Below are positions 31,192 to 56,382 of a DNA stretch of 56,382 bases, in pieces. The position numbers were made by a program, and so were the translations under genes. The notes beneath the pieces were generated by a model, which did no database searches, was not told the origin of the DNA, and saw only the letters and a list, made by a program, of their open reading frames with translations. This stretch comes from Smithella sp. SCADC (lineage in GTDB: Bacteria; Desulfobacterota; Syntrophia; Syntrophales; Smithellaceae), in assembly GCA_000747625.2 (NCBI GenBank), contig JQDQ01000013.1, positions 1 to 56,382 on the forward strand, written 5' to 3'. The first letter of the stretch is position 1, and each line of letters begins with the position of its first letter.

Positions 31192-31367
31192 TATTTCTTT
31201 CCCTTGATATTATAGATAAGATTAGCAAGTATTCTGATTTTAGATTCGCATTAGCTATCACAGAAAAAGATTCAAAGTCAAGGATAACTTGATACCACGT
31301 TATTACTTGATTTTTTTATATTTTTGCCATATTGTACAGCCTAAATCCTAAAAGAATTAATGATTCT

Positions 31368-32159
31368 ATGAAGATAAAAAAATCATTACCAATAACCTTG
31401 TTATTTTCAATACTTCTGCCGTTTTTATCCCTGCAGGGATGTGTTTTTGCTCCTTTAGCATCAAAATTCAATGCCGGAGATTTTTTAATATCCCGGGGAA
31501 ATAGAATCGGCCAGTCTTCTCAAATTATCCTCGTCAGAGACAATAGCTTTCTTTTTTTCACCAAAACAACTCTTTACGCCATGGAAAAGCGTGAAAATAA
31601 ATGGCAGGCCGTTTTTGAACCTTTTGACGCCGTAGTCGGGAAAAACGGCTTTGCGCCTGAAGGAGAAAAAAAAGAGGGTGACGGCAGAACACCTTCCGGC
31701 ATTTTTCCTGTTAAAATGACCTTCGGCTATGATGAATCTATAGAAACAAAAATGCCTTACCGTCAGGCTTTGGCCGACGATATCTGGGTTGATGACCAAA
31801 ACGCCGAAGATTACAACCGCTGGGTGAAAAAATCCGAAACGCGTGCGGTATCTTACGAGATGATGAAACGTGATGACGATCTTTACAAGTATGGAATTGT
31901 CATTGAGTATAATACGGACCCTGTAATAAAAGGAAACGGCAGCGCCATCTTTCTGCACATCTGGAAAGGCGAAGGCATACCTACGGCCGGATGCGTGGCT
32001 GTTTCCGAAGAGGATATCATTAAAATTCTCGGCTGGCTCAATCCTGCGGCATCGCCGCTTATCATTACCGGCATCACAAATAATGATAAGGAATGGTGGC
32101 ACTACACCCTGACAAACGAACCTTATCCCGATACTTACTTTGATTTTGTTATCGAGTGA
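31368..32159 (+). CDS. L,D-transpeptidase-family lipoprotein (YkuD catalytic domain)
   Basis: The track ORF starts at a TTG at 31332. I place the start at ATG 31368 (MKIKKSLPITLLFSILLPFLSLQGC, lipobox). The catalytic block is SAIFLHIWKGEGIPTAGCVAVSEEDI (H...G.TAGC). Confidence 0.75.
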   Translation: MKIKKSLPITLLFSILLPFLSLQGCVFAPLASKFNAGDFLISRGNRIGQSSQIILVRDNSFLFFTKTTLYAMEKRENKWQAVFEPFDAVVGKNGFAPEGEKKEGDGRTPSGIFPVKMTFGYDESIETKMPYRQALADDIWVDDQNAEDYNRWVKKSETRAVSYEMMKRDDDLYKYGIVIEYNTDPVIKGNGSAIFLHIWKGEGIPTAGCVAVSEEDIIKILGWLNPAASPLIITGITNNDKEWWHYTLTNEPYPDTYFDFVIE

Positions 32160-32164
32160 AAAAC

Positions 32165-33403
32165 ATGAAGATAAAACTGCCTCCGTTTTTTAAATCATAC
32201 GGCTTTTCGATCATCCTGATTATCTCGATTATCATCGGATCATTTTTAGGAATCATCTATCAAAAGGATGCTATTGTTTTTAAACCATTCGGCGATATTT
32301 TTCTGAATCTCCTCTTTACCGTGATCGTGCCTCTGGTTTTCTTTTCCATTTCTTCCGCCGTCGCGGGAATGACCAACATCCGGCGTCTGGGAAAAATAAT
32401 GGGGTCCATGATTTTTGTTTTTGTTATTACCGGCCTGATCGCTTCGATGGTTATGATCATCGGCGTTATTCTTTATCCTCCGGCAACAGGCGCTCATGTA
32501 AATTTAGGCAATGGGGTAAATGTCGAACACTTAAAAGCTTCCGAACAAATGGTGAAGGCTTTTACTGTTTCCGATTTTGCCGATTTATTATCTAAAAAGA
32601 ACATGCTGGCACTGATTATCTTTGCCATTCTCACAGGACTGGCAACTTCGGCGGTAGGTGAACGCGGAAAATCTTTCGCCAACTTCCTGACTTCGGGAAG
32701 CGATGTGATGATGAAACTTATTTCTTTCATCATGTACTACGCTCCCATCGGCCTTTGCGCCTACTTTGCCTATCTGGCCGGTGTCTTCGGACCGGAGTTG
32801 CTGGGTTCTTACGCCAGGGCGATGGTTCTTTATTACCCGACAGCTATTTTGTATTTCTTTATCGCTTTCACTATCTATGCTTTTATTGCCGCCAAAGGCG
32901 AAGGCGTGCGCCGGTTCTGGCGCAATATCATTCCGGCCTCGCTTATTGCTTTGGCGACAGGAAGTTCGATGGCAACAATTCCCGCTAATCTGGAAGCTGC
33001 AAATAAAAACGGCGTGCCCAAGGATATAAGCGAAGTTATCATCCCCATCGGAGCAACGATGCATATGGAAGGCTCTTGTCTTGCGGCCATTTTAAAAATT
33101 GCTTTCCTGTTCGGTATATTTAATATGCCCTTTTCCGGAGCACAAACAATTCTGACCGCTCTGGGCATTGCCCTGTTAACCGGTGTTGTAGTCAGTGGCA
33201 TCCCCGGCGGCGGAACAATTGGGGAACTGCTGATAATTTCCTTTTATGGTTTACCGCTGGAAGCCTTTCCGATTATCACGATGATCGGCACACTGGTCGA
33301 CGCACCGGCGACAATGCTCAACGCCGTCGGCGATAACGTCTCCAGCATGATTGTCGCACGCATGCTGGGCGGCAAGGATTGGATCAAAAGAGGTACAGGC
33401 TGA
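32165..33403 (+). CDS. Dicarboxylate/amino acid:cation symporter (DAACS/SDF family)
   Basis: About 412 aa, multi-TM. Family blocks: GSSMATIPANLE (SSSAATLP-like), IGATMHMEGSCL and DAPATMLNAVGDNVSS. Confidence 0.85.
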   Translation: MKIKLPPFFKSYGFSIILIISIIIGSFLGIIYQKDAIVFKPFGDIFLNLLFTVIVPLVFFSISSAVAGMTNIRRLGKIMGSMIFVFVITGLIASMVMIIGVILYPPATGAHVNLGNGVNVEHLKASEQMVKAFTVSDFADLLSKKNMLALIIFAILTGLATSAVGERGKSFANFLTSGSDVMMKLISFIMYYAPIGLCAYFAYLAGVFGPELLGSYARAMVLYYPTAILYFFIAFTIYAFIAAKGEGVRRFWRNIIPASLIALATGSSMATIPANLEAANKNGVPKDISEVIIPIGATMHMEGSCLAAILKIAFLFGIFNMPFSGAQTILTALGIALLTGVVVSGIPGGGTIGELLIISFYGLPLEAFPIITMIGTLVDAPATMLNAVGDNVSSMIVARMLGGKDWIKRGTG

Positions 33404-33404
33404 A

Positions 33405-33529
33405 AGAGTGCTGGATAAAATCCGTTCCATTTTTGTGATTTTTTCAAATTCAAACAGACAGTAAAATCCTCCAGTTCGGCTGGTTCAGAAACTAAAGACA
33501 AGCTGGAAGGGTTGTTTAAGAAAGGCTAA
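33405..33529 (+). pseudogene. C-terminal fragment (codons about 54-94, with a 1-nt deletion) of a diverged second copy of the zinc-ribbon gene at 35542..35826
   Basis: RVLDKIRS / FCDFFKFKQTVKSSSSAGSETKDKLEGLFKKG* aligns with RVVDKTRSNFCDFFRFKQSGKSSSSAGSGTKNKLEDLFKKS* of the intact gene. It begins 2 nt after the symporter stop. The same attcatactggat motif follows both copies. Confidence 0.75.
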
Positions 33530-33593
33530 ATTCATACTGGATTTACCCTGAAGGGCACTCCGCCCGCCTTCGCGTGACAGGGCGGGGCATAAA

Positions 33594-33938
33594 TTATTCA
33601 GCAGACAAGCTCTTATCAAAAATTCGTTCGCCCGTTTCGATTATCTCTTTAATATACGGATCAGTTTCGTCAAAATCCGACCGAGCAAAAGTGTGCGGTT
33701 CAATGCGCAGATCAATATTCCACCTTAGTTTTCTGAGTTGTACATCTTCATCGAAGCCATCAATATCATCCCGATCAAGGAATACGGCCAAATCAATATC
33801 GCTTTCAGAATTATAAGTGTCTTTGGCATAAGAACCATAAAGATACAACCGCCAGACAGCAATATTGTTGCGTTTCAAATTCTGCAAATAATCTTTTATT
33901 TTTTTATAAACTAATTGCTTATCTTTTCGAGCAGCCAT
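33594..33938 (-). CDS. Nucleotidyltransferase-domain protein (MNT-type partner of HEPN)
   Basis: 114 aa; LYLYGSYAKDTYNSESDIDLAVFL is the GS-x10-DxD minimal nucleotidyltransferase motif. Confidence 0.85.
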   Translation of the reverse strand: MAARKDKQLVYKKIKDYLQNLKRNNIAVWRLYLYGSYAKDTYNSESDIDLAVFLDRDDIDGFDEDVQLRKLRWNIDLRIEPHTFARSDFDETDPYIKEIIETGERIFDKSLSAE

Positions 33939-34303
33939 TTTCTAAAACCATTAACCTTGGATATTTGATTTTCCGTAAACTGACGAGTAGCCTTTTTTTG
34001 AAATCTCTTTTTATAATCAGGGTATCTCGCCCGAAGATTGAACGTTGTCAATTCTTCTAAAATTATCTTTTGATCTTCAGATAAATCCAGCGCCGCTTTA
34101 TCAGCAATTTCAATAAGATTATGAATACGAGGATAATTTACATCAACTTTTATTACATAATACGCCTTCAATAACTTTTCTATAACAAGATGACTTAAAA
34201 AAAGCGACCATGAGTAATGACCGTTAGCAAAGAGACTTTGCATAACATTATAGTCCAAATCAGATGATTCGACCCAATATTCGACTATCTTTTTTCTCTC
34301 CAT
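33911..34303 (-). CDS. HEPN-domain protein
   Basis: 130 aa; ...WVESSDLDYNVMQSLFANGHYSWSLFLSHLVIEKLLKAYYV...RIHNLIEIA...LTTFNLRARYPD. This is the HEPN (PF05168-like) pattern. It overlaps the MNT gene by 28 nt. Confidence 0.8.
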   Translation of the reverse strand: MERKKIVEYWVESSDLDYNVMQSLFANGHYSWSLFLSHLVIEKLLKAYYVIKVDVNYPRIHNLIEIADKAALDLSEDQKIILEELTTFNLRARYPDYKKRFQKKATRQFTENQISKVNGFRKWLLEKISN

Positions 34304-34357
34304 GTAAGTAATTTACATGATTAAAAAGGATTAAGCAATACCTAACTAAATCTTTAT

Positions 34358-34410
34358 TTAGACGGCGCAGGGCGAATGGCAGCAGGGAAGTAATTCCATT
34401 TTGTATTTCC
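34358..34410 (-). pseudogene. arnD: Orphan 3'-terminal fragment (17 codons + stop) of a diverged arnD copy
   Basis: The reverse strand reads KYKMELLPCCHSPCAV*, against KYKMELLPGRHSPCAV* at the end of the intact arnD (36087-36139). Identity is about 85% at nucleotide level, and four of the six differing codons (of 17) carry only synonymous changes. Confidence 0.7.
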
Positions 34411-34459
34411 GTATGATCTTGGACAATTTATATCCCTATTACATGGTTATGAAAGCTTC

Positions 34460-34489
34460 TTGACATTTACCCGACACAACTTGTATCTT
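34460..34489 (+). promoter_or_regulatory. Sigma70-like promoter (TTGACA-18-TATCTT) placed 7 nt before the ATG; duplicate of the promoter at 35505
   Basis: TTGACA at 34460-34465, TATCTT at 34484-34489, ATG at 34497. The geometry is the same as in the intact copy. Confidence 0.5.
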
Positions 34490-34496
34490 CACTTTT

Positions 34497-34655
34497 ATGA
34501 ATATCTGCCACAAATGTATAAAAGAAATCGCAGATGATCTTTTTGCCGGACGGCAATCGCAATGCCCTTCCTGCGGCGTTGATTTGCATTGTTGTCTGAA
34601 CTGCTTTTTTTTGCCATCGGTGATAATTTGGATGAAGGAGGATGAAGCGCTATGA
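34497..34655 (+). pseudogene. Truncated N-terminal copy (codons 1-38 homologous, 52-codon ORF) of the zinc-ribbon gene, ATGA-overlapped with the acyltransferase gene
   Basis: MNICHKCIKEIADDLFAGRQSQCPSCGVDLHCCLNCFF, then unrelated LPSVIIWMKEDEAL*. The intact gene reads MNICHKCKKDIPDDFFVGRQAQCHSCGADLHCCLNCSF. The stop TGA (34653-34655) overlaps the ATG at 34652. The ORF is too short to appear in the track. Confidence 0.7.
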
Positions 34656-35383
34656 AGGCTTTTCTATCCCGTAAAATATTAATTATGCTGGTAAGCTTAT
34701 ATGTGACACTCAGAATCACCGTCATCGTTTTGTACTGGGTGAGCTTCAAGGGCGGGTACCCCAGAAAAGACGGGGACGGACTTTTGAACTGGTGGTCGAA
34801 CGGACTGGTAAATGCAGTCCGAATAAAAAAGACGGTCTTCGATCCTTTCAACATCCGCATCGAACAGGGAAAACGCCACATCATCATGTCGAATCACCGC
34901 AGCCATTATGACATTCCCCTAACAATCCTCTCTCTTCCGGCCAGCATCCGCATGCTTACCAAGAAGGAGCTGTTCCGGATACCATTGTGGGGACGTGGCA
35001 TGGCGGCGGGTGAATTCATCTCCATCGACCGTAACAATATCGAGCAGGCCAAGCAGGATTTGAAGAAGGCCCGCGAAAAAATGGAGGATGGGATCGTATT
35101 GTGGATAGCCCCTGAAGGAACCCGTTCACGAACCGGACGAATGGGAATGTTTAAGAAAGGAGGCTTCATACTTGCTATTGAGGCCGGCGCACAGATTATA
35201 CCTATCGGCATCCGTGGTTCCGAGAAAGTCCTGAGGCCCAAGACCTGGGACTTCTTCCTGGATCAGAAGGTGAATGTCCATATTGGCAAGCCGATTGATG
35301 CCTCGGCATACACCGTAGAAAACAAGGATGAACTGATCGAGGCAGTACGGCGTGAAATCAGCATCCTGTGCGGCGAAGCCTGA
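34652..35383 (+). CDS. 1-acyl-sn-glycerol-3-phosphate acyltransferase-like (LPLAT/PlsC family)
   Basis: 243 aa with an N-terminal TM, an NHRSHYD (HX4D) block, FISIDR and APEGTRS. Confidence 0.85.
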   Translation: MKAFLSRKILIMLVSLYVTLRITVIVLYWVSFKGGYPRKDGDGLLNWWSNGLVNAVRIKKTVFDPFNIRIEQGKRHIIMSNHRSHYDIPLTILSLPASIRMLTKKELFRIPLWGRGMAAGEFISIDRNNIEQAKQDLKKAREKMEDGIVLWIAPEGTRSRTGRMGMFKKGGFILAIEAGAQIIPIGIRGSEKVLRPKTWDFFLDQKVNVHIGKPIDASAYTVENKDELIEAVRREISILCGEA

Positions 35384-35504
35384 TTTCAAGACGTAATCAA
35401 CCACGATCAATCAATTTATTCAAGAAGGCGCTGCCTATCAGAGAGAAAATTTAAAATAGGCCTGCATAAATGTTTCACCAAAAAGGCTTCTACATGAAAG
35501 TTTC

Positions 35505-35534
35505 TTGACAAACATCGGACATAATTTATATCTT
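35505..35534 (+). promoter_or_regulatory. Sigma70-like promoter (TTGACA-18-TATCTT) 7 nt upstream of the ATG (a leaderless transcript is predicted)
   Basis: TTGACA at 35505-35510, TATCTT at 35529-35534, ATG at 35542. There is no Shine-Dalgarno. Confidence 0.5.
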
Positions 35535-35541
35535 CACTTGC

Positions 35542-35826
35542 ATGAATATTTGCCACAAATGTAAAAAAGACATCCCGGATGATTTTTTTGTCGGCAGGCA
35601 GGCACAGTGCCATTCCTGCGGAGCTGATCTGCATTGTTGTTTGAATTGTTCTTTTTATGATACAGGTTCTTATAACGATTGTCGTGAATCACAAGCAGAA
35701 CGTGTTGTGGACAAAACCCGCTCCAATTTTTGTGACTTTTTTAGATTCAAGCAATCAGGAAAGTCTTCCAGCTCGGCTGGTTCGGGAACTAAAAATAAGT
35801 TGGAAGATTTATTTAAGAAAAGCTAA
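35542..35826 (+). CDS. Small cysteine-rich (putative zinc-ribbon) protein, function unknown
   Basis: 94 aa; CHKC-x15-CHSC-x5-CCLNC...C...C, 10 Cys in the first 64 residues, then a Ser/Gly/Lys-rich tail. The two diverged fragments elsewhere in the window keep the Cys pattern, which argues that it is a real gene. Confidence 0.65.
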   Translation: MNICHKCKKDIPDDFFVGRQAQCHSCGADLHCCLNCSFYDTGSYNDCRESQAERVVDKTRSNFCDFFRFKQSGKSSSSAGSGTKNKLEDLFKKS

Positions 35827-35855
35827 TTGAAAATTCATACTGGATACCGGCCTCC

Positions 35856-36060
35856 GAGACTGTGTCATAATTGCAAATATTTATTATGCGTTATGAGTAA
35901 TGTCCCCCGCTGGCGGGGGCAGGGGGTGGAAAAGTTTTTGAAACATACGTAATTTTGGTCAGTTGAGAATTATGTGAATTTAATCCACCTCCGTCACTGC
36001 GTGACACCTCCGCCAGCGGAGGACATTTAATGGTTATATTTGTTATTGCGACACAGTCTC
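35856..36060. mobile_element. MITE-like non-coding element (family B) with about 24-bp terminal inverted repeats and nested internal inverted repeats
   Basis: TIR-L is gagactgtgtcataattgcaaata (35856-35879). TIR-R is tatttgttattgcgacacagtctc (36037-36060). The inner pair is aatgtcccccgctggcggggg (35899-35919) / cctccgccagcggaggacatt (36007-36027). A second copy starts at 56330. Confidence 0.7.
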
Positions 36061-36086
36061 TTCTCGGGAATGACAGCATTTAAATA

Positions 36087-36944
36087 TTAAACGGCACAGG
36101 GTGAATGGCGGCCGGGGAGTAATTCCATTTTGTATTTTCTTGCAGGCAGATTTTTAATATCAATTTTGTCTTTGATTGTCTTCAGCGGTACTATTTCTAT
36201 GTTCTGGCTTAGCGTTTTTTCCAAAAGTTCTCTGAATTGATTTTCAAAGAGGCCTCCTTCTACTTCGGCATGAACCGGCAAAACATGTGTTCCACCGTCT
36301 TTAAGAAGACCGGCAATAATCGAGATACCTTTTTGCGCATCAATTTCTTCAAAGCAAGGCAGGTCGGATGGTATCTCAGGAAGATTAGCTATTGCATGGA
36401 TAAAAGGAGTTTTGGCCCGCGTGCAACTCAGATATTCAAATTTATATTCCTTGATTATTGCCAGTACGCGGTCATTAATTGTCCATGAAGGCGCACCGAA
36501 AGCCGTTGGTTTCTTTCCAGTCAATTTTTCGAAGCCACTCATGCCTTTGACAAACCATTCACTAATCCATTTTTCTGATTTACGCGACAGATCATCTTGC
36601 CACCGGCGGTGATCCCAGGCGTGAAATTGAACTTCATGACCAGCGGCGATTATATCATTCACAATGTCAGGAAAGGAAAGCGCTATCATCGGCGCGGGAA
36701 GTAGTGTTCCATATAAAGCCGTTTTCCAGCCGTAAAGAGCGGGCGCGTTTGTCCGCATCATCTTCCTTAAAAATAGCGGATTCTTGATTAGCTGTAATGC
36801 GGCGCGGCCGGAATTATCCGGTCCGATGCTTAAGAAAAATGTTCCTTTCAAATTGAATTGTTTTAAGGTTTGCAAAAGAGAGGGCACGCCGTTTTTCATA
36901 CCCCAGTAGGTATCGACATCTATTTTTAATCCGAGCATCGGCAT
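36087..36944 (-). CDS. arnD: 4-deoxy-4-formamido-L-arabinose-phosphoundecaprenol deformylase (polysaccharide deacetylase family)
   Basis: 285 aa; LGLKIDVDTYWGMKNGVPSLL...FFLSIGPDNSGRA...LYGW...HAWDH..W. It is collinear with ArnD and is the last gene of the arn operon. Confidence 0.85.
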   Translation of the reverse strand: MPMLGLKIDVDTYWGMKNGVPSLLQTLKQFNLKGTFFLSIGPDNSGRAALQLIKNPLFLRKMMRTNAPALYGWKTALYGTLLPAPMIALSFPDIVNDIIAAGHEVQFHAWDHRRWQDDLSRKSEKWISEWFVKGMSGFEKLTGKKPTAFGAPSWTINDRVLAIIKEYKFEYLSCTRAKTPFIHAIANLPEIPSDLPCFEEIDAQKGISIIAGLLKDGGTHVLPVHAEVEGGLFENQFRELLEKTLSQNIEIVPLKTIKDKIDIKNLPARKYKMELLPGRHSPCAV

Positions 36945-36967
36945 AACTATTTTTCACCCTCACCCAA

Positions 36968-36988
36968 CCTCTCCCCTCAAGGGAGAGG
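36968..36988 (-). other. GC-rich intercistronic stem-loop between the arnA decarboxylase gene and arnD
   Basis: cctctccc-ctcaa-gggagagg, a perfect 8-bp stem with no U-tract after it on the minus strand. It belongs to the widespread ...SPLKGEG... type of intergenic palindrome. Confidence 0.5.
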
Positions 36989-37012
36989 AGCTAAAGGAAA
37001 GAAATATATAGA

Positions 37013-38047
37013 TTATATTTTGGCGTTTTTGTTTTCTTTCAGAAACGAATTAAGCGTTAGCCGCATGGATTCTTCCAATCCGATTTTCGGTTCCCAGTTT
37101 AAGAGCTTCCCCGCCTTTTCAATGCTGGGCTTGCGGGTGTAAATATCCTGATAACCCTTGCCGTAAAACGTATCCGCGGAAGTATCAATTATTTTGGAAT
37201 AGGTTTTATCGTTTCGATGATCGGGATGCTGTTTAAACAACTTTTTCAAAATCTGGGCCAGCTCTTTCACCGAACATTCGTTTTGGGGATTGCCGATGTT
37301 GATAATCTGGTTCTTGCAGACGTCATTTTTATTTTCCAGTATTTTCATCAGCGCGTCGATACCGTCGTCAACATAAGTAAAGCAGCGTTTCTGCGTTCCG
37401 CCGTCAACAAGATTTATCGGCCTTTTTAAGAACAGTTCTGCGATGAATTGCGTGACAACGCGCGAACTGCCTTCCTTGGCCGTATAGAGAGAATCGAGCC
37501 TGGGGCCTACCCAGTTAAACGGTCGAAACAAGGTAAACTCCAGATGACCTCTTGTGCCGTAGCCGTAAATCACGCGGTCCAGAAGCTGTTTGCAGCAGGA
37601 GTATATCCAGCGTTCCTTATTGATCGGGCCTACTACCAGAAAGCTTTCATCTTCTTTAAATTCCGGATCATTGCAGGCGCCGTATACTTCAGAGGTGGAG
37701 GGAAAGACAACGCGCTTGTGATATTTGACGCATTTCTTGATAATATCAACGTTCATCTCAAAATCTAGATTATACACGGCGATGGGATCTTCCACGTAAA
37801 GCTTCGGAGTGGCAATAGCCACCAGCGGCATGACGACATCGCATTTCTTGATTTGCAGTTCTATCCATTCCCGGTTGATGGCAATATCGCCTTCCATGAA
37901 ATGAAAATTAGGATTATTCAGAGATTTGCCCAGCCGGTCCGTTCCCAAATCCATCCCGTAGACTATCCAGTCTTTCTTTTTCGCCAGTATTCTGTTGACC
38001 AGATGGTGTCCGATAAATCCGTTCACACCAAGAATTAATATTTTCAT
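37013..38047 (-). CDS. arnA: UDP-glucuronate decarboxylase (oxidative, UDP-4-keto-pentose forming); stand-alone homologue of the ArnA C-terminal domain
   Basis: 344 aa; ILILGVNGFIGHHL...HFMEGDI......KKCDVVMPLVAIATP...FPSTSEVYG...WIYSCCKQLLDRVI..YG....FTLFRPFNW.GPRLD. It is very close to the ArnA dehydrogenase domain. Confidence 0.88.
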   Translation of the reverse strand: MKILILGVNGFIGHHLVNRILAKKKDWIVYGMDLGTDRLGKSLNNPNFHFMEGDIAINREWIELQIKKCDVVMPLVAIATPKLYVEDPIAVYNLDFEMNVDIIKKCVKYHKRVVFPSTSEVYGACNDPEFKEDESFLVVGPINKERWIYSCCKQLLDRVIYGYGTRGHLEFTLFRPFNWVGPRLDSLYTAKEGSSRVVTQFIAELFLKRPINLVDGGTQKRCFTYVDDGIDALMKILENKNDVCKNQIINIGNPQNECSVKELAQILKKLFKQHPDHRNDKTYSKIIDTSADTFYGKGYQDIYTRKPSIEKAGKLLNWEPKIGLEESMRLTLNSFLKENKNAKI

Positions 38048-38964
38048 TTTAGTTCTTTTACCTTTCCGCTTTCAAAATAGTTATTAATTTGTTCGCCTCT
38101 AAGGCGTTTCCCTTTCACTTCAATATCGAGGAACTTTATAGCATTTTTACCCGTTTGCACAAGAATTTCTTTGTCAGTAATAATTAATTTCCCCGGCATG
38201 AATACTTCTTTAGACACTACCGGTTCGGCCCACCAGATAATAATTTTTTCATCATTATCCAAGGAAGCAAAGGCTCCGGGATATGGTTGGGTGACTCCGC
38301 GAATCAAATTGTAAATTTCAACGGCTGATTTTTTCCAGTCAATGCGGCCATCCTCCGGACGTCTTCCGCCGTAATAACTGCCCTGACTCAAATCCTGCTT
38401 CTGCCGCGAATTTTGACCTTTTTTCATCAAAGGCAGCACGTCGTCCAGAAGTTCCTTTGCCGCCCCGCAGAGCTTACCGTTCAAGGTTTTAGCAGTATCG
38501 GAGACGTCTATCACGACCGGCTTCCGGCCGACAATGTCTCCGGCGTCCGGTTTTTCGATCATATAATGCAGTGTTACGCCGGTTTGTTTCTCACCGTTGA
38601 TGATTACCCAGTTGACCGGACATCTCCCCCGGTAATAAGGCAAATATGAGCCATGCAGATTAAAAGCTCCCGCACGAGGCAGATCAAGGATTTTCTGACA
38701 GATCATTTTCCGGTAATAGAAAGAAAATATTATATCGGGATTCATCGCCGCTATCTTCGCGATCCAATCAGGCGAATTGACTTTTTCCGTTGTATATACC
38801 GCGATATTTTTCTGACCGGCCCAGTTCTTAACCGAACCGAACCAGCAATTTTCACCGGGATCATCTTCATGAGTAAACACAGCCGCTATATCGTAACCGT
38901 GACGCGACAGAGCGTCCAAACCGGTAAGGCCCATGTTGTGATAAGCAAACACAACCGTTTTCAT
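38044..38964 (-). CDS. arnA: UDP-4-amino-4-deoxy-L-arabinose formyltransferase; stand-alone homologue of the ArnA N-terminal domain
   Basis: The start was moved to ATG 38962-38964 (MKTVVFAYHNMG...); the track uses a GTG at 38979. FSFYYR......L......AFNLHGS.LP.YRGR.P.NWV..NGE..TGVTLH.M....DAG.I. Confidence 0.88.
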   Translation of the reverse strand: MKTVVFAYHNMGLTGLDALSRHGYDIAAVFTHEDDPGENCWFGSVKNWAGQKNIAVYTTEKVNSPDWIAKIAAMNPDIIFSFYYRKMICQKILDLPRAGAFNLHGSYLPYYRGRCPVNWVIINGEKQTGVTLHYMIEKPDAGDIVGRKPVVIDVSDTAKTLNGKLCGAAKELLDDVLPLMKKGQNSRQKQDLSQGSYYGGRRPEDGRIDWKKSAVEIYNLIRGVTQPYPGAFASLDNDEKIIIWWAEPVVSKEVFMPGKLIITDKEILVQTGKNAIKFLDIEVKGKRLRGEQINNYFESGKVKELK

Positions 38965-38975
38965 ATTAATATTTC

Positions 38976-39917
38976 TCACTGATTATTAGTGTGCACTTTT
39001 TCTATAACATATTCCGGCCGCTTGCGGGCTTCCACATAAATGCGGCCGATATATTCGCCGATAACTCCCAGAGCAAAAAATTGCATGCCGACGAACACGA
39101 ATAAAACGGCAAACAGCGTGAATATTCCATCCGCCGCCCATCTTGCGCCGTAAGCCAGTCTGGCGACGGCCAGAAAGATACCGAAACAGACGCCCAGAAA
39201 AGACATGATGATTCCGCCGTACATGATCAGCTTCATCGGAAAATCAGAAAACGACGCCACAAGATCGAACTGAAGGTTGATCAGTTTACTCAGGGGATAA
39301 CTGGACTTGCCGCCGTATCTTTCTTCATGTTCCACTTCTATTTCTGCGATACGTTTAGCGAAAACCGTCGCCAGCGCCGGAATAAATGTGGCGTGTTCAT
39401 GGCATTGAATCATTCTCTCCACTACGGTACTGCGATAGGCGCGCAGCATGCATCCCCAGTCACGCATGCTGACTCCCGTAATCTTTCGGGCAACGATATT
39501 AATTACTTTTGAAGGAAGGATTCTCAGGAAAGAATCTTTACGCCCTTTTCTTATCGAACCGACAACATCATAGTTGCCCTCTTCCATAAGCTTGACGAGT
39601 TTCGGTATTTCTTCAGGAGGATTCTGTAAATCGGCATCCATCGTAATAATAATATCAGCGTTAACAACCGAAAAACCGGCCATAATGGCCGAGTGCTGAC
39701 CGTAATTGCGGGTCAGTTCCACCACCTTTACATGTTCGTCCTTCGTAAAGCTTTTGAGAATTTCCAGAGAATCATCATGACTCCCGTCATCAATAAGGAT
39801 TATCTCAAAGGTTTTATTCATGCCCTGCATTACCGGCATCAGCCGCTTCATCAAGGCAGACAGATTCGCTTCTTCATTATAAACGGGGATGACTACTGCC
39901 ACCTGAGCTTTACCCAT
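38976..39917 (-). CDS. arnC: Undecaprenyl-phosphate 4-deoxy-4-formamido-L-arabinose transferase (GT2)
   Basis: 313 aa; VVIPVYNEE..L..L..R.........EI.LIDDGS.D.S...L... plus two C-terminal TM helices. Confidence 0.88.
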   Translation of the reverse strand: MGKAQVAVVIPVYNEEANLSALMKRLMPVMQGMNKTFEIILIDDGSHDDSLEILKSFTKDEHVKVVELTRNYGQHSAIMAGFSVVNADIIITMDADLQNPPEEIPKLVKLMEEGNYDVVGSIRKGRKDSFLRILPSKVINIVARKITGVSMRDWGCMLRAYRSTVVERMIQCHEHATFIPALATVFAKRIAEIEVEHEERYGGKSSYPLSKLINLQFDLVASFSDFPMKLIMYGGIIMSFLGVCFGIFLAVARLAYGARWAADGIFTLFAVLFVFVGMQFFALGVIGEYIGRIYVEARKRPEYVIEKVHTNNQ

Positions 39918-41061
39918 TTTTTATAATCTCCTTTATTGCTTTACAGACATACTCTACATCTTTTTCCCGCATATCCGGAAACAAAGGCAACGAAATAATC
40001 TTTTGCGCAGCAAGATCGGTTTCCGGAAGCAGACCAATATTATCCGCATACCCTGCTTTTATATAGTTTAAGGCATGAGCCGGCGGGAAATGCAGACCGT
40101 ATCCGATATTGTAATCGGATAATCTATTCATGAACTCATCCCGATTCACGGCATGAACCTTTATCACAAAAAGATGCCACGCATGGGTGTGATCATATGC
40201 CGGAACTTCAGGCAAATCAATACCGGAAATATCCTTGAGGCCTTCCAGATAAAGTTGAGCCAGCCCGGTACGCTTTTGATTAAACTCCTGCCAGCGCTCC
40301 ATTTGCGCCAATCCCAGCGCGGCCAGCACATCCGGCATATTATATTTATATCCGGGTGCTGCAATATCGTACGACGGATTGCCGCCTTTGCCGTATCTTT
40401 TCCAGGCGTCTCTTTCGATTCCATGAAATCTCAGCAGCCGCAATTTCTTTTCCAGCGCGGCATCGTTCAAGGTGACCATTCCGCCTTCGCCGGTGGTTAT
40501 ATTTTTTATCGGATGGAAAGAAAAGATAGCCGTGTGACCGAAACCGCCGGTGTGAATTCCTTTATAGTAAGTCCCTACGGCATGAGCGGCATCTTCGATA
40601 ACAGTTAAATTATATTTGCGCGCCAGATTATTTATCTTATCCATATTAGCGGGAGCTCCGGCGAAATGCACCGGAATAATCGCTCTTGTTCTCTTGGTGA
40701 TTTTCTCCTCAATCAAATTAGTATTAATATTCAGTGTACCGTAATCAATATCGACAAATACCGGTTTCGCGCCGCTTAATGCGATCATGTTTACCGTGGA
40801 GGCAAACGTCATCGACGGCGTGATGATTTCATCACCCGGGCCAATATTCAGCGCGGATAAAGTAATATGCATCCCGGCTGTGGCGGAATTAAGAGATACC
40901 GCCAGCGTGGAACCTGAAAGCTTGCAGAAGTTATCCTCAAATTCCTTAGAAAGCACGCCTGTCGTAATCCATCCTGATTTTAAACAGGCGGTCACTTTAT
41001 TTATTTCGCTCTTGCCGATTGACGGACGGCTAAATGGCAAAAATTTTTTTCTTACTTTCAA
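39910..41061 (-). CDS. arnB: UDP-4-amino-4-deoxy-L-arabinose--oxoglutarate aminotransferase (DegT/DnrJ/EryC1 family)
   Basis: 383 aa; FLPFSRPSIG..E......L.SGW.TTG.....FE......G......NSATAG.H......FSFH.IKN.T..EGG. Confidence 0.88.
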   Translation of the reverse strand: MKVRKKFLPFSRPSIGKSEINKVTACLKSGWITTGVLSKEFEDNFCKLSGSTLAVSLNSATAGMHITLSALNIGPGDEIITPSMTFASTVNMIALSGAKPVFVDIDYGTLNINTNLIEEKITKRTRAIIPVHFAGAPANMDKINNLARKYNLTVIEDAAHAVGTYYKGIHTGGFGHTAIFSFHPIKNITTGEGGMVTLNDAALEKKLRLLRFHGIERDAWKRYGKGGNPSYDIAAPGYKYNMPDVLAALGLAQMERWQEFNQKRTGLAQLYLEGLKDISGIDLPEVPAYDHTHAWHLFVIKVHAVNRDEFMNRLSDYNIGYGLHFPPAHALNYIKAGYADNIGLLPETDLAAQKIISLPLFPDMREKDVEYVCKAIKEIIKNG

Positions 41062-41074
41062 CGATCATCCTTTT

Positions 41075-42790
41075 TTAATTTTTTATATGAAGCAGATAAA
41101 ACGCTTTATTATCCCAGAGTACTTCCGTTGCAGAAAATTTTTTAGTAATCTCCAATAATTTTTCCTTACGCCGTGTAATGCAATATATATCTTTTTTATC
41201 TTCGCACAACTTAAAAAATTCATCCACGGAGAGGAAGTAATGTTTCTTTTCTTCCCCGGGCATCTTGGCAATACCCTCCGCTAATTCGCCAAAATCTTCA
41301 ACAATCGGTGTTCTTATTTTATTATAAAAATCAATGCCGTAAAAATTTACCCGATATTGATATAAATCTCTATCCTGCGGCACATACCTGGCAATTGCCT
41401 CCCCGGCCACTTTAGCGCTGCGGTAAGGCCCCAGGAAATCATTAATGGGGAAAAGCAGGCTGCCCAGCAACACTGCACAGAGAATATATATGCTGAAAAA
41501 CCAGCCCTTCTTGAATTTTTTATAAATTAAATCCGGCAGGAAAGTCATTAGAAACAGGACAATTAAGGGAACTGCGATATACAGCCACCACTTGTCGGAA
41601 ATCACAATAATAACTTCTTTCTTTAGAATGAGAATCGCAAAAATAATATCATTCTTTAGAATGGCATATTTTTTCAAGATCGGCGGCAGAATCAAAGCAA
41701 TAAATAGAATTAAAGACTGTAAAATAATCGCCAGCCGATAAATTATATTTCGCCATTTTTTTTGTTCCGCCGGCATTTCTTCTTCATACCTTTTGAATAT
41801 AGATCCCGCGAAAAGAGATAATGGTAAAAACACAGGGGTAATGTAAGGTATCAATTTGGATGAAGAGACGGTATAAAAAGCAAAAATCAACAAGAACCAG
41901 GTAATAAGAAATTTATTTTCATCTCTGGTGAATAATGACTCCGTAATGTATTTATTCTTCCAGGCTTTGATTAAATAAAAGATCCAGGGGATTAATCCGG
42001 CGGCAATTATGGGCAGATAGAAATAAAATGGGGCTTCTTTATGGTGCATCTTTGTCGTAAAACGCAAAAAATGCTCGCGAACAAAAAAGAACCACAAAAA
42101 ATCAGGATTTTCTCTTTGAGCCATTATTAACCAGGGACAAACAACCGCTAAAAATATTAATATGCCCACAGGTGAAAAAAACTTCCATATTTCCCGCCAT
42201 CGTCCAACCCAGATAAGCCAGACAATCAAAATTCCAGACGGAAAGAGAACGCCGATGAGGCCTTTTGTTAGAAAGGCCAGAGCGCAGGAAAAATAAAATA
42301 AATAAAGGAAATATTGAGGCGATTGTTTTTGTAAAGCCAGATAACCAAACCACGCGGAAAGGCACACAAAAAAAGTAAGTGGAATATCCAGAAGATTGAG
42401 ATGACCCAATATAAAGGGCAGAAGAGAAATCGTCAACAGCATCGCCGCATACAGGCCTGTCTTTTCATCGCGGAAATGCCTGCCCATGAAATAAGCAAGC
42501 AAAATACAGCCCCAGGCACATAAAGCTGCAAAAAGACGGGCTGCAAAATCGTTTTCACCCAATATTTTAAATAGTATTGCCGTCGCCCAGGAAACCAAGG
42601 GAGGCTTTTCCAGATAAATTGTATTTTTTATATGCGGCGTGACATAATTTCCGGACTGATTCATGGCGCTGGCAATCAGGCTGTAGCGGGCCTCATCCGG
42701 TTCCATTTGCGGCATAACCGAAAGCAAACAGATATAAAGAATAAAGGGTATTAAAAATAATATATACTTTTTTTGCATGATGCTTCTCAT
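41075..42790 (-). CDS. arnT: Undecaprenyl phosphate-alpha-L-Ara4N:lipid A transferase-like glycosyltransferase (GT83 / PMT_2)
   Basis: 571 aa with more than 10 TM segments. The N-terminal block EPDEARYSLIASAMNQSGNYVTPH...YLEKPPL is typical of the ArnT/PMT family. It is the first gene of the arn block. Confidence 0.8.
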   Translation of the reverse strand: MRSIMQKKYILFLIPFILYICLLSVMPQMEPDEARYSLIASAMNQSGNYVTPHIKNTIYLEKPPLVSWATAILFKILGENDFAARLFAALCAWGCILLAYFMGRHFRDEKTGLYAAMLLTISLLPFILGHLNLLDIPLTFFVCLSAWFGYLALQKQSPQYFLYLFYFSCALAFLTKGLIGVLFPSGILIVWLIWVGRWREIWKFFSPVGILIFLAVVCPWLIMAQRENPDFLWFFFVREHFLRFTTKMHHKEAPFYFYLPIIAAGLIPWIFYLIKAWKNKYITESLFTRDENKFLITWFLLIFAFYTVSSSKLIPYITPVFLPLSLFAGSIFKRYEEEMPAEQKKWRNIIYRLAIILQSLILFIALILPPILKKYAILKNDIIFAILILKKEVIIVISDKWWLYIAVPLIVLFLMTFLPDLIYKKFKKGWFFSIYILCAVLLGSLLFPINDFLGPYRSAKVAGEAIARYVPQDRDLYQYRVNFYGIDFYNKIRTPIVEDFGELAEGIAKMPGEEKKHYFLSVDEFFKLCEDKKDIYCITRRKEKLLEITKKFSATEVLWDNKAFYLLHIKN

Positions 42791-42792
42791 TT

Positions 42793-43040
42793 TTATTTCA
42801 CGGTTAAATTAATTTGCTTCCGGTCAAAAAAATATTTTACAGCCATAGTCAGCAATATGCCGATACCGGCTCCGGCAATAACATCGCTCAAATAATGCGA
42901 AGTTAAAATTATTCTACTGATACCCACCGCACCCGCAACGACGAATAACGTCGTATACCCCGACGCGGGAAAAGAATAGTTAACGCAGCAGCAAGAGCGA
43001 ACACTGTTTGCGCATGGCCGGAAGAGAAAGATGTTAATTC
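42793..43040 (-). pseudogene. PAP2 (acid phosphatase / lipid phosphatase) C-terminal relic with an internal frameshift and no start codon
   Basis: The reverse strand reads SFSSGHAQTVFALAAALTILFPRRG, then shifts frame at a G4 run, then reads YTTLFVVAGAVGISRIILTSHYLSDVIAGAGIG...TVK*. PAP2 motifs 2 and 3 (SGH, SR....H...D) are present and motif 1 (KxxxxxxRP) is absent. The stop is 2 nt before the arnT ATG. Confidence 0.7.
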
Positions 43041-56058: not shown

Positions 56059-56329
56059 AACTTATTTTGTTTTTCCTTTAACGGTTTATAATACCATTTT
56101 GCATTCAAAGGACAACGCAGCGGCAAGGAGGAGGCTCCGCAGGCGTATTACTAATACGTTGAGGAAACCGACAACCCCTGCCTGCGCATGGGCAGGCTGT
56201 GCCAACAAAGTTAGCCGAAGAAGGCGGAATGGTGTAAGCTTTTATATCAGAATATGCCCAAAAAGCAAGCGATAAGCCAAGGCATAAATGAGAGCTTTGC
56301 ACAACTCTTCTGTTCGTTATACCGGCGAA

Positions 56330-56382
56330 GAAACTGTGTCGCAATTGCAAAATGAGTAATGTCCCCCGCGGGGGTAGGGTTT
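56330..56382. mobile_element. Left end of a second family B MITE-like element, cut by the window edge
   Basis: gaaactgtgtcgcaattgcaaaatgagtaatgtcccccgcggggg matches gagactgtgtcataattgcaaa...atgagtaatgtcccccgctggcggggg at 35856-35919. Confidence 0.6.

Follow-up and report, generated by a model that had tools for sequence, protein, structure and literature searches.

Gene content of the SDF-arnD interval

The window analysed here, a 56,382-nt stretch of Smithella sp. SCADC compared with numbered loci and contigs of relatives (L014 being the closest), carries on its forward strand an SDF-family (DctA/GltP-like) symporter gene (32156-33403; Pfam PF00375, E 1e-96) that runs into C', a 3' remnant of a zinc-ribbon gene (Zn) on the same strand (33390-33542; codons ~49-94 plus a downstream 15-mer), recognised by its similarity to L014/P0005. 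Beyond a GC-rich hairpin (33558-33588) lie two intact reverse-strand genes that overlap by 28 nt and encode an MNT-type minimal nucleotidyltransferase, the putative antitoxin (33594-33938; PF18765/PF01909), and a HEPN-domain protein, the putative toxin (33911-34303; PF05168, E 5e-18). A 12-nt spacer and D' (the final 17 codons, with the stop, of what appears to be a former native arnD) occupy 34346-34408 on the reverse strand (88% identity to the intact arnD end). The forward strand then holds Pup'-P'-N', the promoter and codons 1-38 of an older Zn copy (34417-34611; 80% to 35494-35656), followed by ~15 nt of filler (34612-34626), a plsC cassette with its ribosome-binding site and 3' flank (34627-35450; gene 34652-35383; PF01553, TIGR00530), and the intact Zn gene (35542-35826) with Pup-P and the downstream 15-mer (35451-35845). 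A MITE-like element (35856-36060) separates this gene from a reverse-strand arnD-like deformylase gene (36087-36944; PF01522), the first of the arn operon. Profile matches agree with the gene identities first assigned (SDF symporter, HEPN, nucleotidyltransferase, PlsC-type acyltransferase and ArnD-like deacetylase in an arn operon), with ArnD scoring 206 bits against NCBIfam PRK15394, under the family cutoff, and MNT scoring 38.6 bits against NCBIfam MntA, under its cutoff of 60.

The initial annotation had described three diverged collinear blocks in permuted order, and self-BLASTN and a repeat search return exactly three, all on the same strand and in that order, with no further matches to them elsewhere in the 56-kb window. 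Block (i), 33395-33542, matches 35691-35845 (77%, E 8e-31); block (ii), 34358-34408, matches 36087-36137 (88%, E 1.6e-14); and block (iii), 34449-34611, matches 35494-35656 (80%, E 4.7e-40). We refer to the Zn 3' part as C', the spacer as S', the arnD end as D', and the promoter plus Zn 5' part as P'N'. Block (i) begins ~10-15 nt upstream of the value first given, at 33390/33395 (Zn codon ~49-51), and overlaps the SDF stop codon (33401-33403). In relatives the homology of block (iii) extends upstream to about 34417, so that only ~8 nt lie between D' and the P' region.

Chimeric joins made on repeats could in principle mimic such a structure, and at the MITE some contigs are indeed broken or wrongly joined (L182 departs at 35866, and both L009 and L187 terminate within the element or at its edge). 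However, ~15 contigs from different JGI/ENA samples, produced by independent assemblers, match the window at 98.4-100%, all five junctions (including J1, J2, N'|plsC and plsC|P, see below) are spanned by at least 11 of them, and the repeats, just 77-88% identical, are too diverged for collapse. Because the blocks recur in independent metagenome contigs in this way, misassembly can be set aside, and we regard an artefact as vanishingly improbable.

Separate affinities of the two Zn fragments

The SDF gene is 92% identical at the nucleotide level to those of both L014 and L030 (dS 0.30), and the identity of the left flank is thus no guide to recipient versus donor. Its final four codons and stop (RGTG*) are read out of the fused Zn remnant, and its terminus resembles an SDF 3' fragment found in L014, unlike the functional SDF end of that locus. 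Alignment with the SDF-fragment-Zn region of L014 places a deletion junction (J1, 33389-33395) between SDF codon -6 and codon ~49 of a putatively native Zn allele (Zn°), out of frame, with ~195 nt of L014 (7956-8150) missing in the window. C' retains a stop codon (33529-33531) and the conserved 15-mer downstream of Zn° (AAATTCATACTGGAT), and has a 1-nt deletion at 33429-33430. It is 91.5% identical in nucleotides and 91% in amino acids to the L014/P0005 orthologue, versus 79% to the window's own intact copy; mismatches to L014 number 10/126 in C' and 27/129 in intact C (Fisher p=0.004). Since the dS of C' to L014 (0.27) matches those of SDF (0.30) and arnD (0.21), we take C' to be the native orthologue. 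The two copies differ by 17.5 synonymous and 10.5 nonsynonymous changes (dS about 1.5, omega 0.07), and N' versus N gives an omega of 0.09. These values bear out the earlier suggestion that the differences are mostly synonymous and that the source of the fragments was a diverged homologue that once functioned, and not a recent local copy (omega 0.07-0.15).

L072, another Smithellaceae genome, has an intact Zn-MNT/HEPN-arnD arrangement, with which the stretch C'-MNT/HEPN-D' (33390-34408) aligns collinearly (alignment from 33396). MNT is 97% identical in amino acids and 92% in nucleotides to its L072 counterpart (omega 0.02), HEPN 90% in nucleotides, and the spacer and D' 89% and 90%, respectively. 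HEPN homologues (83-85% aa) also occur at another Smithella locus, the Kef locus, whose copies bound the cassette at 33611-34345; the 12-nt junction between the toxin-antitoxin (TA) pair and arnD is therefore common to the window and L072. This suggests that the pair belongs to the native side and was not, as first proposed, brought in by the rearrangement. The hairpin, absent from L072 (a 33-nt gap in the alignment), had been read as a MITE remnant, yet a BLAST comparison with the MITE found no similarity and its fold is no better than shuffled sequences (z = -0.96); it is unremarkable, and possibly a terminator. Homology to L072 and to the window's own arnD both stop exactly at 34408/34409, and D' (51 nt) is equidistant (88-90%) from that arnD, L014 and L072. 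Homology to Zn-upstream regions begins at 34417 (L072) or 34425 (L030), limits that leave ~8 nt of filler (34409-34416) at an apparently illegitimate joint, J2, between arnD codon -17 and the P' upstream region. No natural gene order places these two side by side, and no microhomology was demonstrated at either illegitimate joint.

P'N' has a different distribution. A promoter scan predicts elements in P' (TTGACA 34460-65, TATCTT 34484-89), and the N' ORF (52 aa, 34497-34655) extends over the start of plsC. At the N'|plsC breakpoint the window agrees at every base with four contigs, L030, L101, L102 and L149, in three of which the N' ORF is broken. L030 reads SDF-265-aa ORF-P'N'-plsC-Zn, collinear with window positions 34425-35841; L102 reads SDF|N'-plsC-Zn-arnD and L149 SDF-382-aa ORF-N'-plsC, whereas L110 has plsC-Zn only. 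C'-S'-D' is missing upstream of N'-plsC in L030, L102 and L149, and the upstream flank of L101 has no match to the window. The best match of N' (114 nt) is 88-90%; against L014 it is 84% identical (dS 0.84), versus 92% (dS 0.27) for C'. The plsC 'home' loci (L100, L103-L125) match only 34635-35415/35450, which sets the cassette ends, and plsC itself lies at dS 0.55 from L030. The cassette thus appears to have been copied, over ~0.82 kb, from an acyltransferase gene on a Smithella chromosome, and the shared breakpoint argues that P'N'-plsC-Zn (34417-35845) is a module older than the window's rearrangement. plsC is plausibly transcribed from the duplicated promoter P'; as the stub-plsC fusion would predate the species, its expression was not rewired by the event seen here, contrary to the earlier proposal.

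The intact Zn gene retains all columns invariant across 27 aligned homologues, and lies at dS 1.0-1.6 (omega 0.07-0.10) from L014, L030 and L102, with 1.6 to L030, in species 92% identical in SDF. No donor allele more than 83% identical to it was found in the databases searched. We infer that it is a functional immigrant allele, which together with the low dS of C' would reverse the polarity of the initial annotation, where the decayed copy was the second one. The MITE call holds: the element has nested inverted repeats of 25 and 21 nt (terminal repeat GAGACTGTGTC...), a second partial copy lies at 56316-56382 and the same terminal repeat occurs in L182. L014 carries a MITE at the same site with its core inverted, and sliding identity to L014 rises across the element from 80% to 97-99%. 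The arnD gene is 94% identical to that of L014 (dS 0.21; 97-99% in its 3' half), which suggests an L014-like gene that is native or recently exchanged. L014-like DNA thus flanks the island on both sides, and the arn operon is a mosaic.

A cargo-exchange hotspot and its probable layered history

The suggestion that this site is a recombination hotspot is supported by synteny: in ~35 Smithellaceae loci the order is M23-YkuD-M15-SDF-[0-8.6 kb variable cargo]-Zn-arnD, and at least six lineages contain partial SDF or Zn duplicates, among them an SDF 3' stub after the cargo (L014, L036, L046) and Zn 5' stubs with differing breakpoints (L022, L036). No integrase was found among most of the larger cargo ORFs, scanned at 12 loci.

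Taken together, the observed blocks, their separate affinities and the shared breakpoints at this hotspot of an uncultured Smithella probably represent a two-layer recombination scar, in which two unrelated leftovers, a native Zn tail with its TA pair and, from an earlier event, a promoter stub joined to a captured plsC, would have come to lie side by side; we infer the direction (which side received the DNA), the sequence in which the events took place and their enzymology. In the older layer, common to other species, a ~0.82-kb chromosomal plsC copy would have inserted in Zn after codon 38, with ~200 nt of the promoter and the 5' part of the coding region duplicated, to give a 'B-type' module, Pup'P'N'-plsC-Pup-P-Zn. 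In the second, confined to this lineage, the native locus would have been 'A-type' (SDF-Zn°-[MNT/HEPN cassette]-arnD, intact still in L072), and a diverged segment of B-type (Pup'P'N'-plsC-Zn-(MITE)-arnD 3' part), originating in a different Smithellaceae lineage, would have integrated through an illegitimate joint on the left, within native arnD 17 codons before its stop (34408|34417), and on the right through homologous exchange in either arnD or the arn operon. Homology-facilitated illegitimate recombination (HFIR) of linear DNA or a single crossover with a circularised fragment would yield an identical product. Zn°-TA-D' would then stand upstream of the incoming module, leaving two Zn genes in the cell, and a later ~0.2-kb deletion would bring the 3' end of SDF up against codon ~49 of Zn°, by then redundant, producing C'. 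The predicted intermediate (full Zn°-TA-D'-P'N'-plsC) is absent from all contigs searched, and the near-identity of the arnD 3' half to L014 would require a crossover within or beside the MITE/D region or a later L014-like overwrite. Plausible consequences are a symporter with a new 4-residue tail and a TA pair that is still intact. The scar would be an unusually readable yet ordinary record of genome shuffling.

The same final structure would arise with the opposite polarity, if a native B-type locus (SDF-cargo-P'N'-plsC-Zn-arnD) had taken up a ~1-kb A-type piece (Zn° 3' end-MNT/HEPN-arnD stub) that replaced the cargo between SDF and P', by way of a left anchor in SDF plus an illegitimate right joint, or of two illegitimate joints. 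Such cargo does vary in B-type loci (the 265-aa ORF of L030, nothing in L102, the 382-aa ORF of L149), the TA pair demonstrably moves between loci, and SDF is equally near to the A-type L014 and the B-type L030. We nevertheless consider this unlikely, as plsC (dS 0.55) and especially intact Zn (1.6) are far more diverged from L030 than SDF is (0.30), and L014-like DNA lies on both sides (C' dS 0.27; arnD dS 0.21, 3' half 97-99%). Moreover, the SDF-anchored version still needs an extra deletion of Zn° codons 1-48, and the other would have to be targeted without any homologous anchor.

Less probable again is an in-situ tandem duplication of ~1.7-2.4 kb (Pup' to arnD codon -17) in a B-type ancestor, followed by loss of the first copy's P'N'-plsC-PNM in a deletion that runs from the end of SDF as far as Zn codon ~49, and by divergence or partial replacement of the copies. 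Its two steps account exactly for the order of the blocks and for the two types of junction, and the D'|P' joint is shaped like a tandem-duplication junction. The copies would, however, have been identical at the start, yet C' and C differ at dS ~1.5 (omega 0.07), the orthologues lie nearer to pseudogene C' (dS 0.27) than to the functional copy (dS >1), the opposite of expectation, and the spacers are unrelated (TA cassette versus MITE), so that the model would have to add two or more replacements of alleles or cassettes. Of the proposed duplication followed by deletions, then, the duplicative joint and the deletion survive in a loose sense. The circular reading, in which [promoter-Zn-spacer-arnD end] was excised as a circle, reopened in Zn, where codons 39-53 were lost, and put back between SDF and plsC together with HEPN/MNT, seems to us very improbable. 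In formal terms the blocks are circularly permuted, and circular intermediates do integrate and make duplications in experiments (PMC3240628), but the N'|plsC joint pre-exists with the same breakpoint in four contigs of other lineages, with no C'-S'-D' in 3/3 visible flanks, the affinities of C' (92%, dS 0.27) and N' (84%, dS 0.84) to L014 differ, and C'-TA-D' matches the intact chromosomal arrangement of L072. N' and C' thus have separate histories and not that of one permuted unit, and the gap at codons 39-53, taken at first for the opening of the circle, therefore reflects two independent truncations.

Comparison with known systems

The ~205-bp element is similar to MITEs and REP-like repeats in being non-coding, in its nested terminal and sub-terminal inverted repeats, and in having several copies with a common terminal repeat and the same intergenic site in a sister species; it differs in that neither a target-site duplication nor a partner transposase was identified, and in that its core is inverted relative to the L014 copy. 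As in HEPN-MNT pairs (classical PF05168 HEPN plus minimal nucleotidyltransferase, related to type VII MntA/HepT), two small overlapping genes are found here, forming a ~0.75-kb mobile cassette at two loci under strong purifying selection (MNT omega 0.02). Here, however, the order is HEPN then MNT, the putative toxin is a PF05168 HEPN and not DUF86/HepT, with no Rx4-6H motif seen when its sequence was inspected by eye, and MNT falls under the MntA cutoff.

In the T6SS clusters of V. cholerae, sequential displacement leaves 3' stubs (PMC5361080). These effector-immunity clusters and Rhs/CDI orphan arrays share with our locus the orphaned 3' stubs and displaced genes left by repeated replacement, a conserved flank as anchor, and HFIR as proposed mechanism (PMC5361080). 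In Smithella, however, the cargo is miscellaneous (plsC, TA, regulators, IS, glycosyltransferase-like) and forms no toxin/immunity series, stubs come from three anchor genes (SDF 3', Zn 5' and 3', arnD 3'), and their persistence is not explained by selection for retained immunity. HFIR itself is described, in PMC3240628 and in references in PMC5361080, from Acinetobacter, S. pneumoniae, P. stutzeri and E. coli conjugation, and single crossovers duplicate 109-950 bp of the anchor locus (PMC3240628). Similar to these cases, the proposed event would combine one homologous anchor with one illegitimate joint, leaving an abrupt non-homologous junction beside the anchor gene, and in related events a single crossover makes a duplicate of 0.1-1 kb of the anchor locus. 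The Smithella case differs in being read from sequence footprints in an uncultured anaerobe, and in that donor and recipient would be two organisational variants of one locus, so that the product resembles a permuted duplicate.

Genes and duplicated blocks of the region

The region carries genes for an SDF symporter (SDF, 32156-33403), an MNT nucleotidyltransferase (33594-33938, minus strand), a HEPN protein (33911-34303, minus strand), a PlsC-type acyltransferase (plsC, 34652-35383) and an ArnD-like deacetylase at the head of an arn operon (arnD, 36087-36944, minus strand), all assigned by Pfam and NCBIfam, together with a gene for a 94-aa Cys-rich zinc-ribbon protein (Zn, 35542-35826). This last protein matched no Pfam, NCBIfam or PADLOC family; eight of its Cys residues are invariant or nearly so among the homologues (P0002-P0120), namely C4, C7, C23, C26, C33, C36, C47 and C64. 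The arnD product scores 206 bits against the PRK15394 profile, under the cutoff of 382, and the arn context is complete, with an ArnA-like formyltransferase and epimerase, an ArnC-like GT2, an ArnB-like aminotransferase and an ArnT-like PMT. Self-BLASTN of 33.2-34.7 kb against 35.4-36.3 kb, with the region also searched against the whole window, returned exactly three same-strand matches, in the order that the initial annotation had given: 33395-33542 with 35691-35845 (77%, E 8e-31), 34358-34408 with 36087-36137 (88%, E 1.6e-14) and 34449-34611 with 35494-35656 (80%, E 4.7e-40). We refer to their left-hand members as C' (a 3' remnant of a zinc-ribbon gene), D' (an arnD 3'-end remnant) and P'N' (the promoter and codons 1-38 of an older Zn copy, P being the intact promoter), and to the spacer holding the MNT/HEPN pair as S'. 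The blocks are real, except that the start of the first moves to about 33390, overlapping the SDF stop codon. About 15 contigs, drawn from different JGI and ENA samples, contain this structure at 98.4-100% identity, and all junctions are spanned in at least 11 of them; on these grounds misassembly is excluded and the junctions are not the chimeric joins that the initial annotation had considered. Likewise, a search by exact MNT protein found the same structure in 23/23 contigs read, with no pre-deletion intermediate or strain variant among them.

The interval between Zn and arnD holds an element (35856-36060) with nested inverted repeats of 25 nt (84%) and 21 nt (90%) and the terminal repeat GAGACTGTGTCGCAAT. 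Related copies lie at 56316-56382 (a truncated copy at the window end) and in three of the Smithellaceae loci compared here, namely L014 (8340-8539), L038 and L182 (reverse-complemented, from 6273), and being short, non-coding, bounded by terminal inverted repeats and dispersed, the element is by all appearances a MITE. The L014 copy occupies the same site between Zn and arnD, with its core inverted relative to the window. L182 leaves the window sequence inside the terminal repeat (35866) and continues with another element and genes for an ABC-2 transporter, a departure to be explained by chimeric assembly or by rearrangement through the MITE. The hairpin at 33558-33588, previously taken for a MITE remnant, found no support as such and was rejected both in that role and as a structured RNA; an Rfam scan of 33000-36500 gave no match. 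Elsewhere in the neighbourhood, all relatives examined have an M15 D-Ala-D-Ala dipeptidase gene separating YkuD from SDF (about 0.7 kb in L014 and L030). The window (31332-32159) has lost this gene by deletion except for the final ~29 codons, joined in frame to the YkuD ORF at a junction near 32070-32080, Pfam M15 positions 171-197 of 199 falling at residues 247-273 of the fusion. Downstream of the arn genes, the order in relatives is an ArnT-like PMT, PAP2 (205-215 aa) and a second PMT. In the window (about 42790-42930; L001 17252-17386) a 44-aa fragment is all that is left of PAP2, and a Glyco_transf_9 gene comes immediately after it, an arrangement that looks like another local deletion or replacement.

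Separate affinities of the two pieces

The right-hand piece of the window, P'N'-plsC-P-Zn (34425-35841), is collinear with L030 (Smithella UBA2180), which between SDF and P' has a 265-aa ORF and no C'-S'-D'. Further loci carry parts of the same arrangement: L102 shows SDF, N', plsC, Zn and arnD within 2.1 kb, L101 and L149 carry N'-plsC, and L110 shows plsC-Zn only. The breakpoint sequence between N' and plsC is the same in the window and in four loci (L030, L101, L102 and L149), and in the three of these four whose upstream flank can be seen, C'-S'-D' is absent. Only the window and L030 retain an open N' ORF; a frameshift, lost Cys or stop breaks it in L101, L102 and L149, and this, together with the common breakpoint, points to one old event whose stub is decaying; translational coupling from N' to plsC was rejected as a conserved feature for the same broken ORFs. 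We relied on the shared breakpoint because the N part (114 nt; distances across 28 copies) is too conserved to place N', which is closest, at 88-90%, to N' of L030, to L036 and to the L022 stub. The P' hexamers found by promoter scan (TTGACA-18-TATCTT) are identical to those of P, and P' plausibly drives plsC. In most Smithella, plsC orthologues (82-92% aa) occupy a 'home' context unrelated to this one, and since these loci match the window over about 34627-35450 only, the plsC cassette measures about 0.82 kb.

The left-hand piece (C', hairpin, MNT, HEPN, spacer and D', 33396-34408) is in turn collinear with an intact Zn-MNT-HEPN-arnD arrangement in L072, at 92% identity in MNT, 90% in HEPN, 89% in the HEPN-arnD spacer and 90% in D', with C' at 77% only and SDF at 75%. 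Homology to L072 ends exactly at 34408, and with identity at 37% beyond this point, we rejected the idea that diverged arnD codons extend D' as far as P'; D' itself is 88-90% identical to the window's own arnD, L014 and L072 alike and is uninformative on origin. The initial annotation had read the degraded copy as a circular permutation opened within the zinc-ribbon gene, with reinsertion of a circularised segment as one option. This mechanism is contradicted by the N'-plsC joint in loci without C'-S'-D' and by the collinearity of the left piece with L072; moreover, the parts do not derive from one copy, C' being 92% and N' 84% identical to L014. Given the separate affinities of the two pieces, the 'missing' codons 39-53 reflect a separate truncation of each piece rather than a single circle having been opened.

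Both genes of the HEPN/MNT pair are intact, and the pair shows strong purifying selection (omega 0.02 for MNT). Its genes overlap by 28 nt and score above their family thresholds (HEPN, PF05168, 65.7 bits, cutoff 22; MNT, PF18765, 45.7 bits, cutoff 26.9), features that identify it as a probable HEPN/MNT toxin-antitoxin pair. Type VII MntA/HepT systems are marked by an MntA equivalog score, a DUF86-type HepT with Rx4H and an antitoxin that adenylylates the toxin; the window's pair departs from this in its profile scores: MNT reaches 38.6 bits against NCBIfam MntA, under the cutoff of 60, and there was no HepT/DUF86 match. PADLOC returned only weak candidate-system matches for MNT, and HEPN and Zn matched nothing in it. 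We thus regard it as apparently of the classical PF05168/MNT type rather than a verified type VII system. Close homologues in other Smithella sit at a Kef-exchanger locus and match the window over 33611-34345 only, which argues for a mobile toxin-antitoxin cassette of about 0.75 kb whose junction to the arnD stop is common to L072 and the window. The closest non-identical pairs (83-85% aa; L189-L198) lie between a Kef-type Na/H exchanger and a CarboxypepD_reg-domain protein, a conserved Smithella position (HEPN at 5001-5393 in L189-L193, L195 and L196), and this locus may be the source of the cassette between Zn and arnD.

The initial annotation had also taken the degraded copy as the second one, and here the polarity appears reversed. 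In SDF the window shares 92% identity (synonymous divergence, dS, 0.30) with its closest relatives, L014 (HGW-Deltaproteobacteria-2) and L030, and its arnD is 94% identical to that of L014 (dS 0.21). C' differs from the L014 Zn gene to a similar degree (dS 0.27, omega 0.15, 91.5% nt) and is thus apparently its orthologue, inactivated only recently. The intact Zn is at dS 1.0-1.3 from L014, 1.6 from L030 and 1.4 from L102 (omega 0.07-0.10), these three being only 0.33-0.65 apart among themselves, and it retains every column invariant across 27 aligned homologues, as would a functional allele of a more distant lineage rather than a fast-decaying copy. That the two copies are xenologues had been rightly suspected (C' against its intact counterpart, dS ~1.5, omega 0.07). 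The plsC gene is at dS 0.55 from L030, above the divergence of SDF, and identity to L014 jumps across the MITE from 80% in Zn to 97-99% in the arnD 3' half. Because Zn and plsC (dS 1.0-1.6 and 0.55) stand against flanks at sister-species divergence (0.21-0.30), and because of the jump at the MITE, we infer that the island 34417-35845 is immigrant DNA with L014-like DNA on both flanks. Sliding-window identity shows the right region to be mosaic, and apart from the jump at the MITE it singles out no breakpoint: 36040-42900 is 71-99% identical to L014 8524-16282 in 150-nt windows, with near-identical tracts at, for example, 36115-36415, 41215-41290 and 42415-42790, and this mosaic arn operon suggests frequent homologous exchange between the two lineages.

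A recombination hotspot between SDF and Zn

Homologues of the zinc-ribbon protein number 457, almost all of them in Smithella or Smithellaceae. We fetched 80 genomic loci together with an alignment of the protein, and read the contexts of individual homologues besides. About 35 of the 80, in closer Smithella relatives, share the Zn-SDF synteny, reading SecA-M23-YkuD-M15-SDF, a variable cargo of 0-8.6 kb and Zn, followed by arnD and the arn operon on the opposite strand. The cargo is mixed (DUF1329/MMPL, LuxR-PAS, GGDEF/HD, TPR-PMT-like, radical SAM, AbiU2 and two IS transposases), and the anchor genes often occur as partial duplicates. In three other lineages an SDF 3' stub follows the cargo, in L014, L015 and L016, in L036 and in L046 (orphan fragments of 130-190 nt before Zn, at L014 7824-7955, also L016 33-164, L036 9125-9270 and L046 9152-9343), and Zn 5' stubs with differing breakpoints occur in L022 and L036. 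The SDF terminus of the window resembles the L014 stub and not the functional SDF end of L014; the stub therefore represents the old native end, displaced by incoming cargo, and the functional end would have arrived with the DUF1329/MMPL cargo. These observations bear out the earlier suggestion of a recombination hotspot, one that appears habitually to leave stubs. A site-specific hotspot with integrase and att site was rejected, since the larger cargo ORFs scanned in 12 loci include no tyrosine or serine integrase (the only recombinases being IS256-like and IS110 transposases, in 2 loci) and the breakpoints are inconstant (Zn codon ~26, 38 or ~50; SDF 44 to 60 codons before its end).

In 4/4 independent stub events the next cargo ORF lies on the strand of the stub: plsC in the B-type loci (P'N'-plsC-P-Zn), and in L022 a TupA-like ATP-grasp gene; L036 provides the other two cases, in one of which an SDF 3' fragment intervenes. 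In L022 an AbiU2-type HEPN abortive-infection gene (7895-8632) is directly followed by the Zn 5' stub (8645-8738; 90% to P'N' of the window) and then the TupA-like gene. It is conceivable, but in our judgement quite improbable, that the interval from SDF to arnD goes beyond a passive hotspot and is a recombinase-independent gene-capture platform in which the Zn promoter and 5' stub are re-duplicated and co-opted to express captured genes. Both the plsC and the HEPN/MNT cassettes are ~0.8-kb copies of genes resident elsewhere in Smithella chromosomes, which on this reading would hint at templated copy-and-insert (template switching) with flanking duplication, rather than classical transfer.

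Proposed history and comparison with known processes

We propose that a native A-type locus (SDF-Zn°-MNT/HEPN-arnD, Zn° being the native zinc-ribbon gene) acquired a B-type segment running from the upstream region of P' through P'N', plsC, Zn and possibly the MITE into the arnD 3' part. Its left end would have been an illegitimate join at the 17th codon from the end of arnD (34408|34417) and its right end resolved by homologous recombination, giving SDF-Zn°-MNT/HEPN-D'|P'N'-plsC-Zn-MITE-arnD. A later deletion of about 0.2 kb would have fused the sixth codon from the end of SDF to codon ~49 of Zn°, leaving C' and the present SDF tail RGTG*. The reverse polarity, a B-type recipient taking in a 1-kb A-type piece, is a less probable alternative that fits the dS pattern less well, and left-flank identity is no guide here, L014 and L030 being equally close. 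Tandem duplication in situ followed by deletion reproduces the block order, but it requires extra replacements, starts from copies identical at birth where C' and its counterpart are at dS ~1.5 (omega 0.07), and predicts the pseudogene to be the more diverged copy, the reverse of what is seen relative to L014 (0.27 for C', above 1 for the intact gene); we therefore do not favour it.

In the acquisition that we prefer, linear DNA would have entered by homology-facilitated illegitimate recombination (HFIR) in the first step; alternatively, a circularised fragment, already carrying the joint of D' to the upstream region of P', would have integrated through a single crossover. As in HFIR, a diverged segment (the island) lies between resident flanks. 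The candidate anchor, arnD with the arn operon, is shared and mosaic (71-99% to L014); L030 ends at Zn and lacks the right flank, and the L102 contig (2.1 kb) extends just 255 nt into arnD. The illegitimate joint of HFIR is usually at a microhomology; here the joint is abrupt, from arnD to the Zn upstream region with ~8 nt of filler. HFIR-type recombination is known mainly from laboratory transformation assays, and the window holds natural footprints consistent with such one-anchor events. What appeared to be a circularly permuted pseudo-copy can thereby be read, step by step, as the history of how an uncultured syntroph exchanged cassettes, and that the intact gene would be the immigrant and the wreck the native copy bears on annotation and orthology-based inference. 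The hotspot lies beside the lipid A-modifying arn operon, and membrane-related genes (plsC, MMPL, PMT-like) as well as defence and toxin-antitoxin genes turn over there in Smithellaceae; the larger cargo ORFs scanned in the 12 loci include no integrase. No new molecular system is revealed here; the region instead offers a clear instance from nature of a type of process already known. HFIR and single crossover are both documented, the latter duplicating 109-950 bp of anchor (PMC3240628), and in leaving stubs the locus is analogous to the 'sequential displacement' of V. cholerae T6SS clusters and Rhs loci (PMC5361080).
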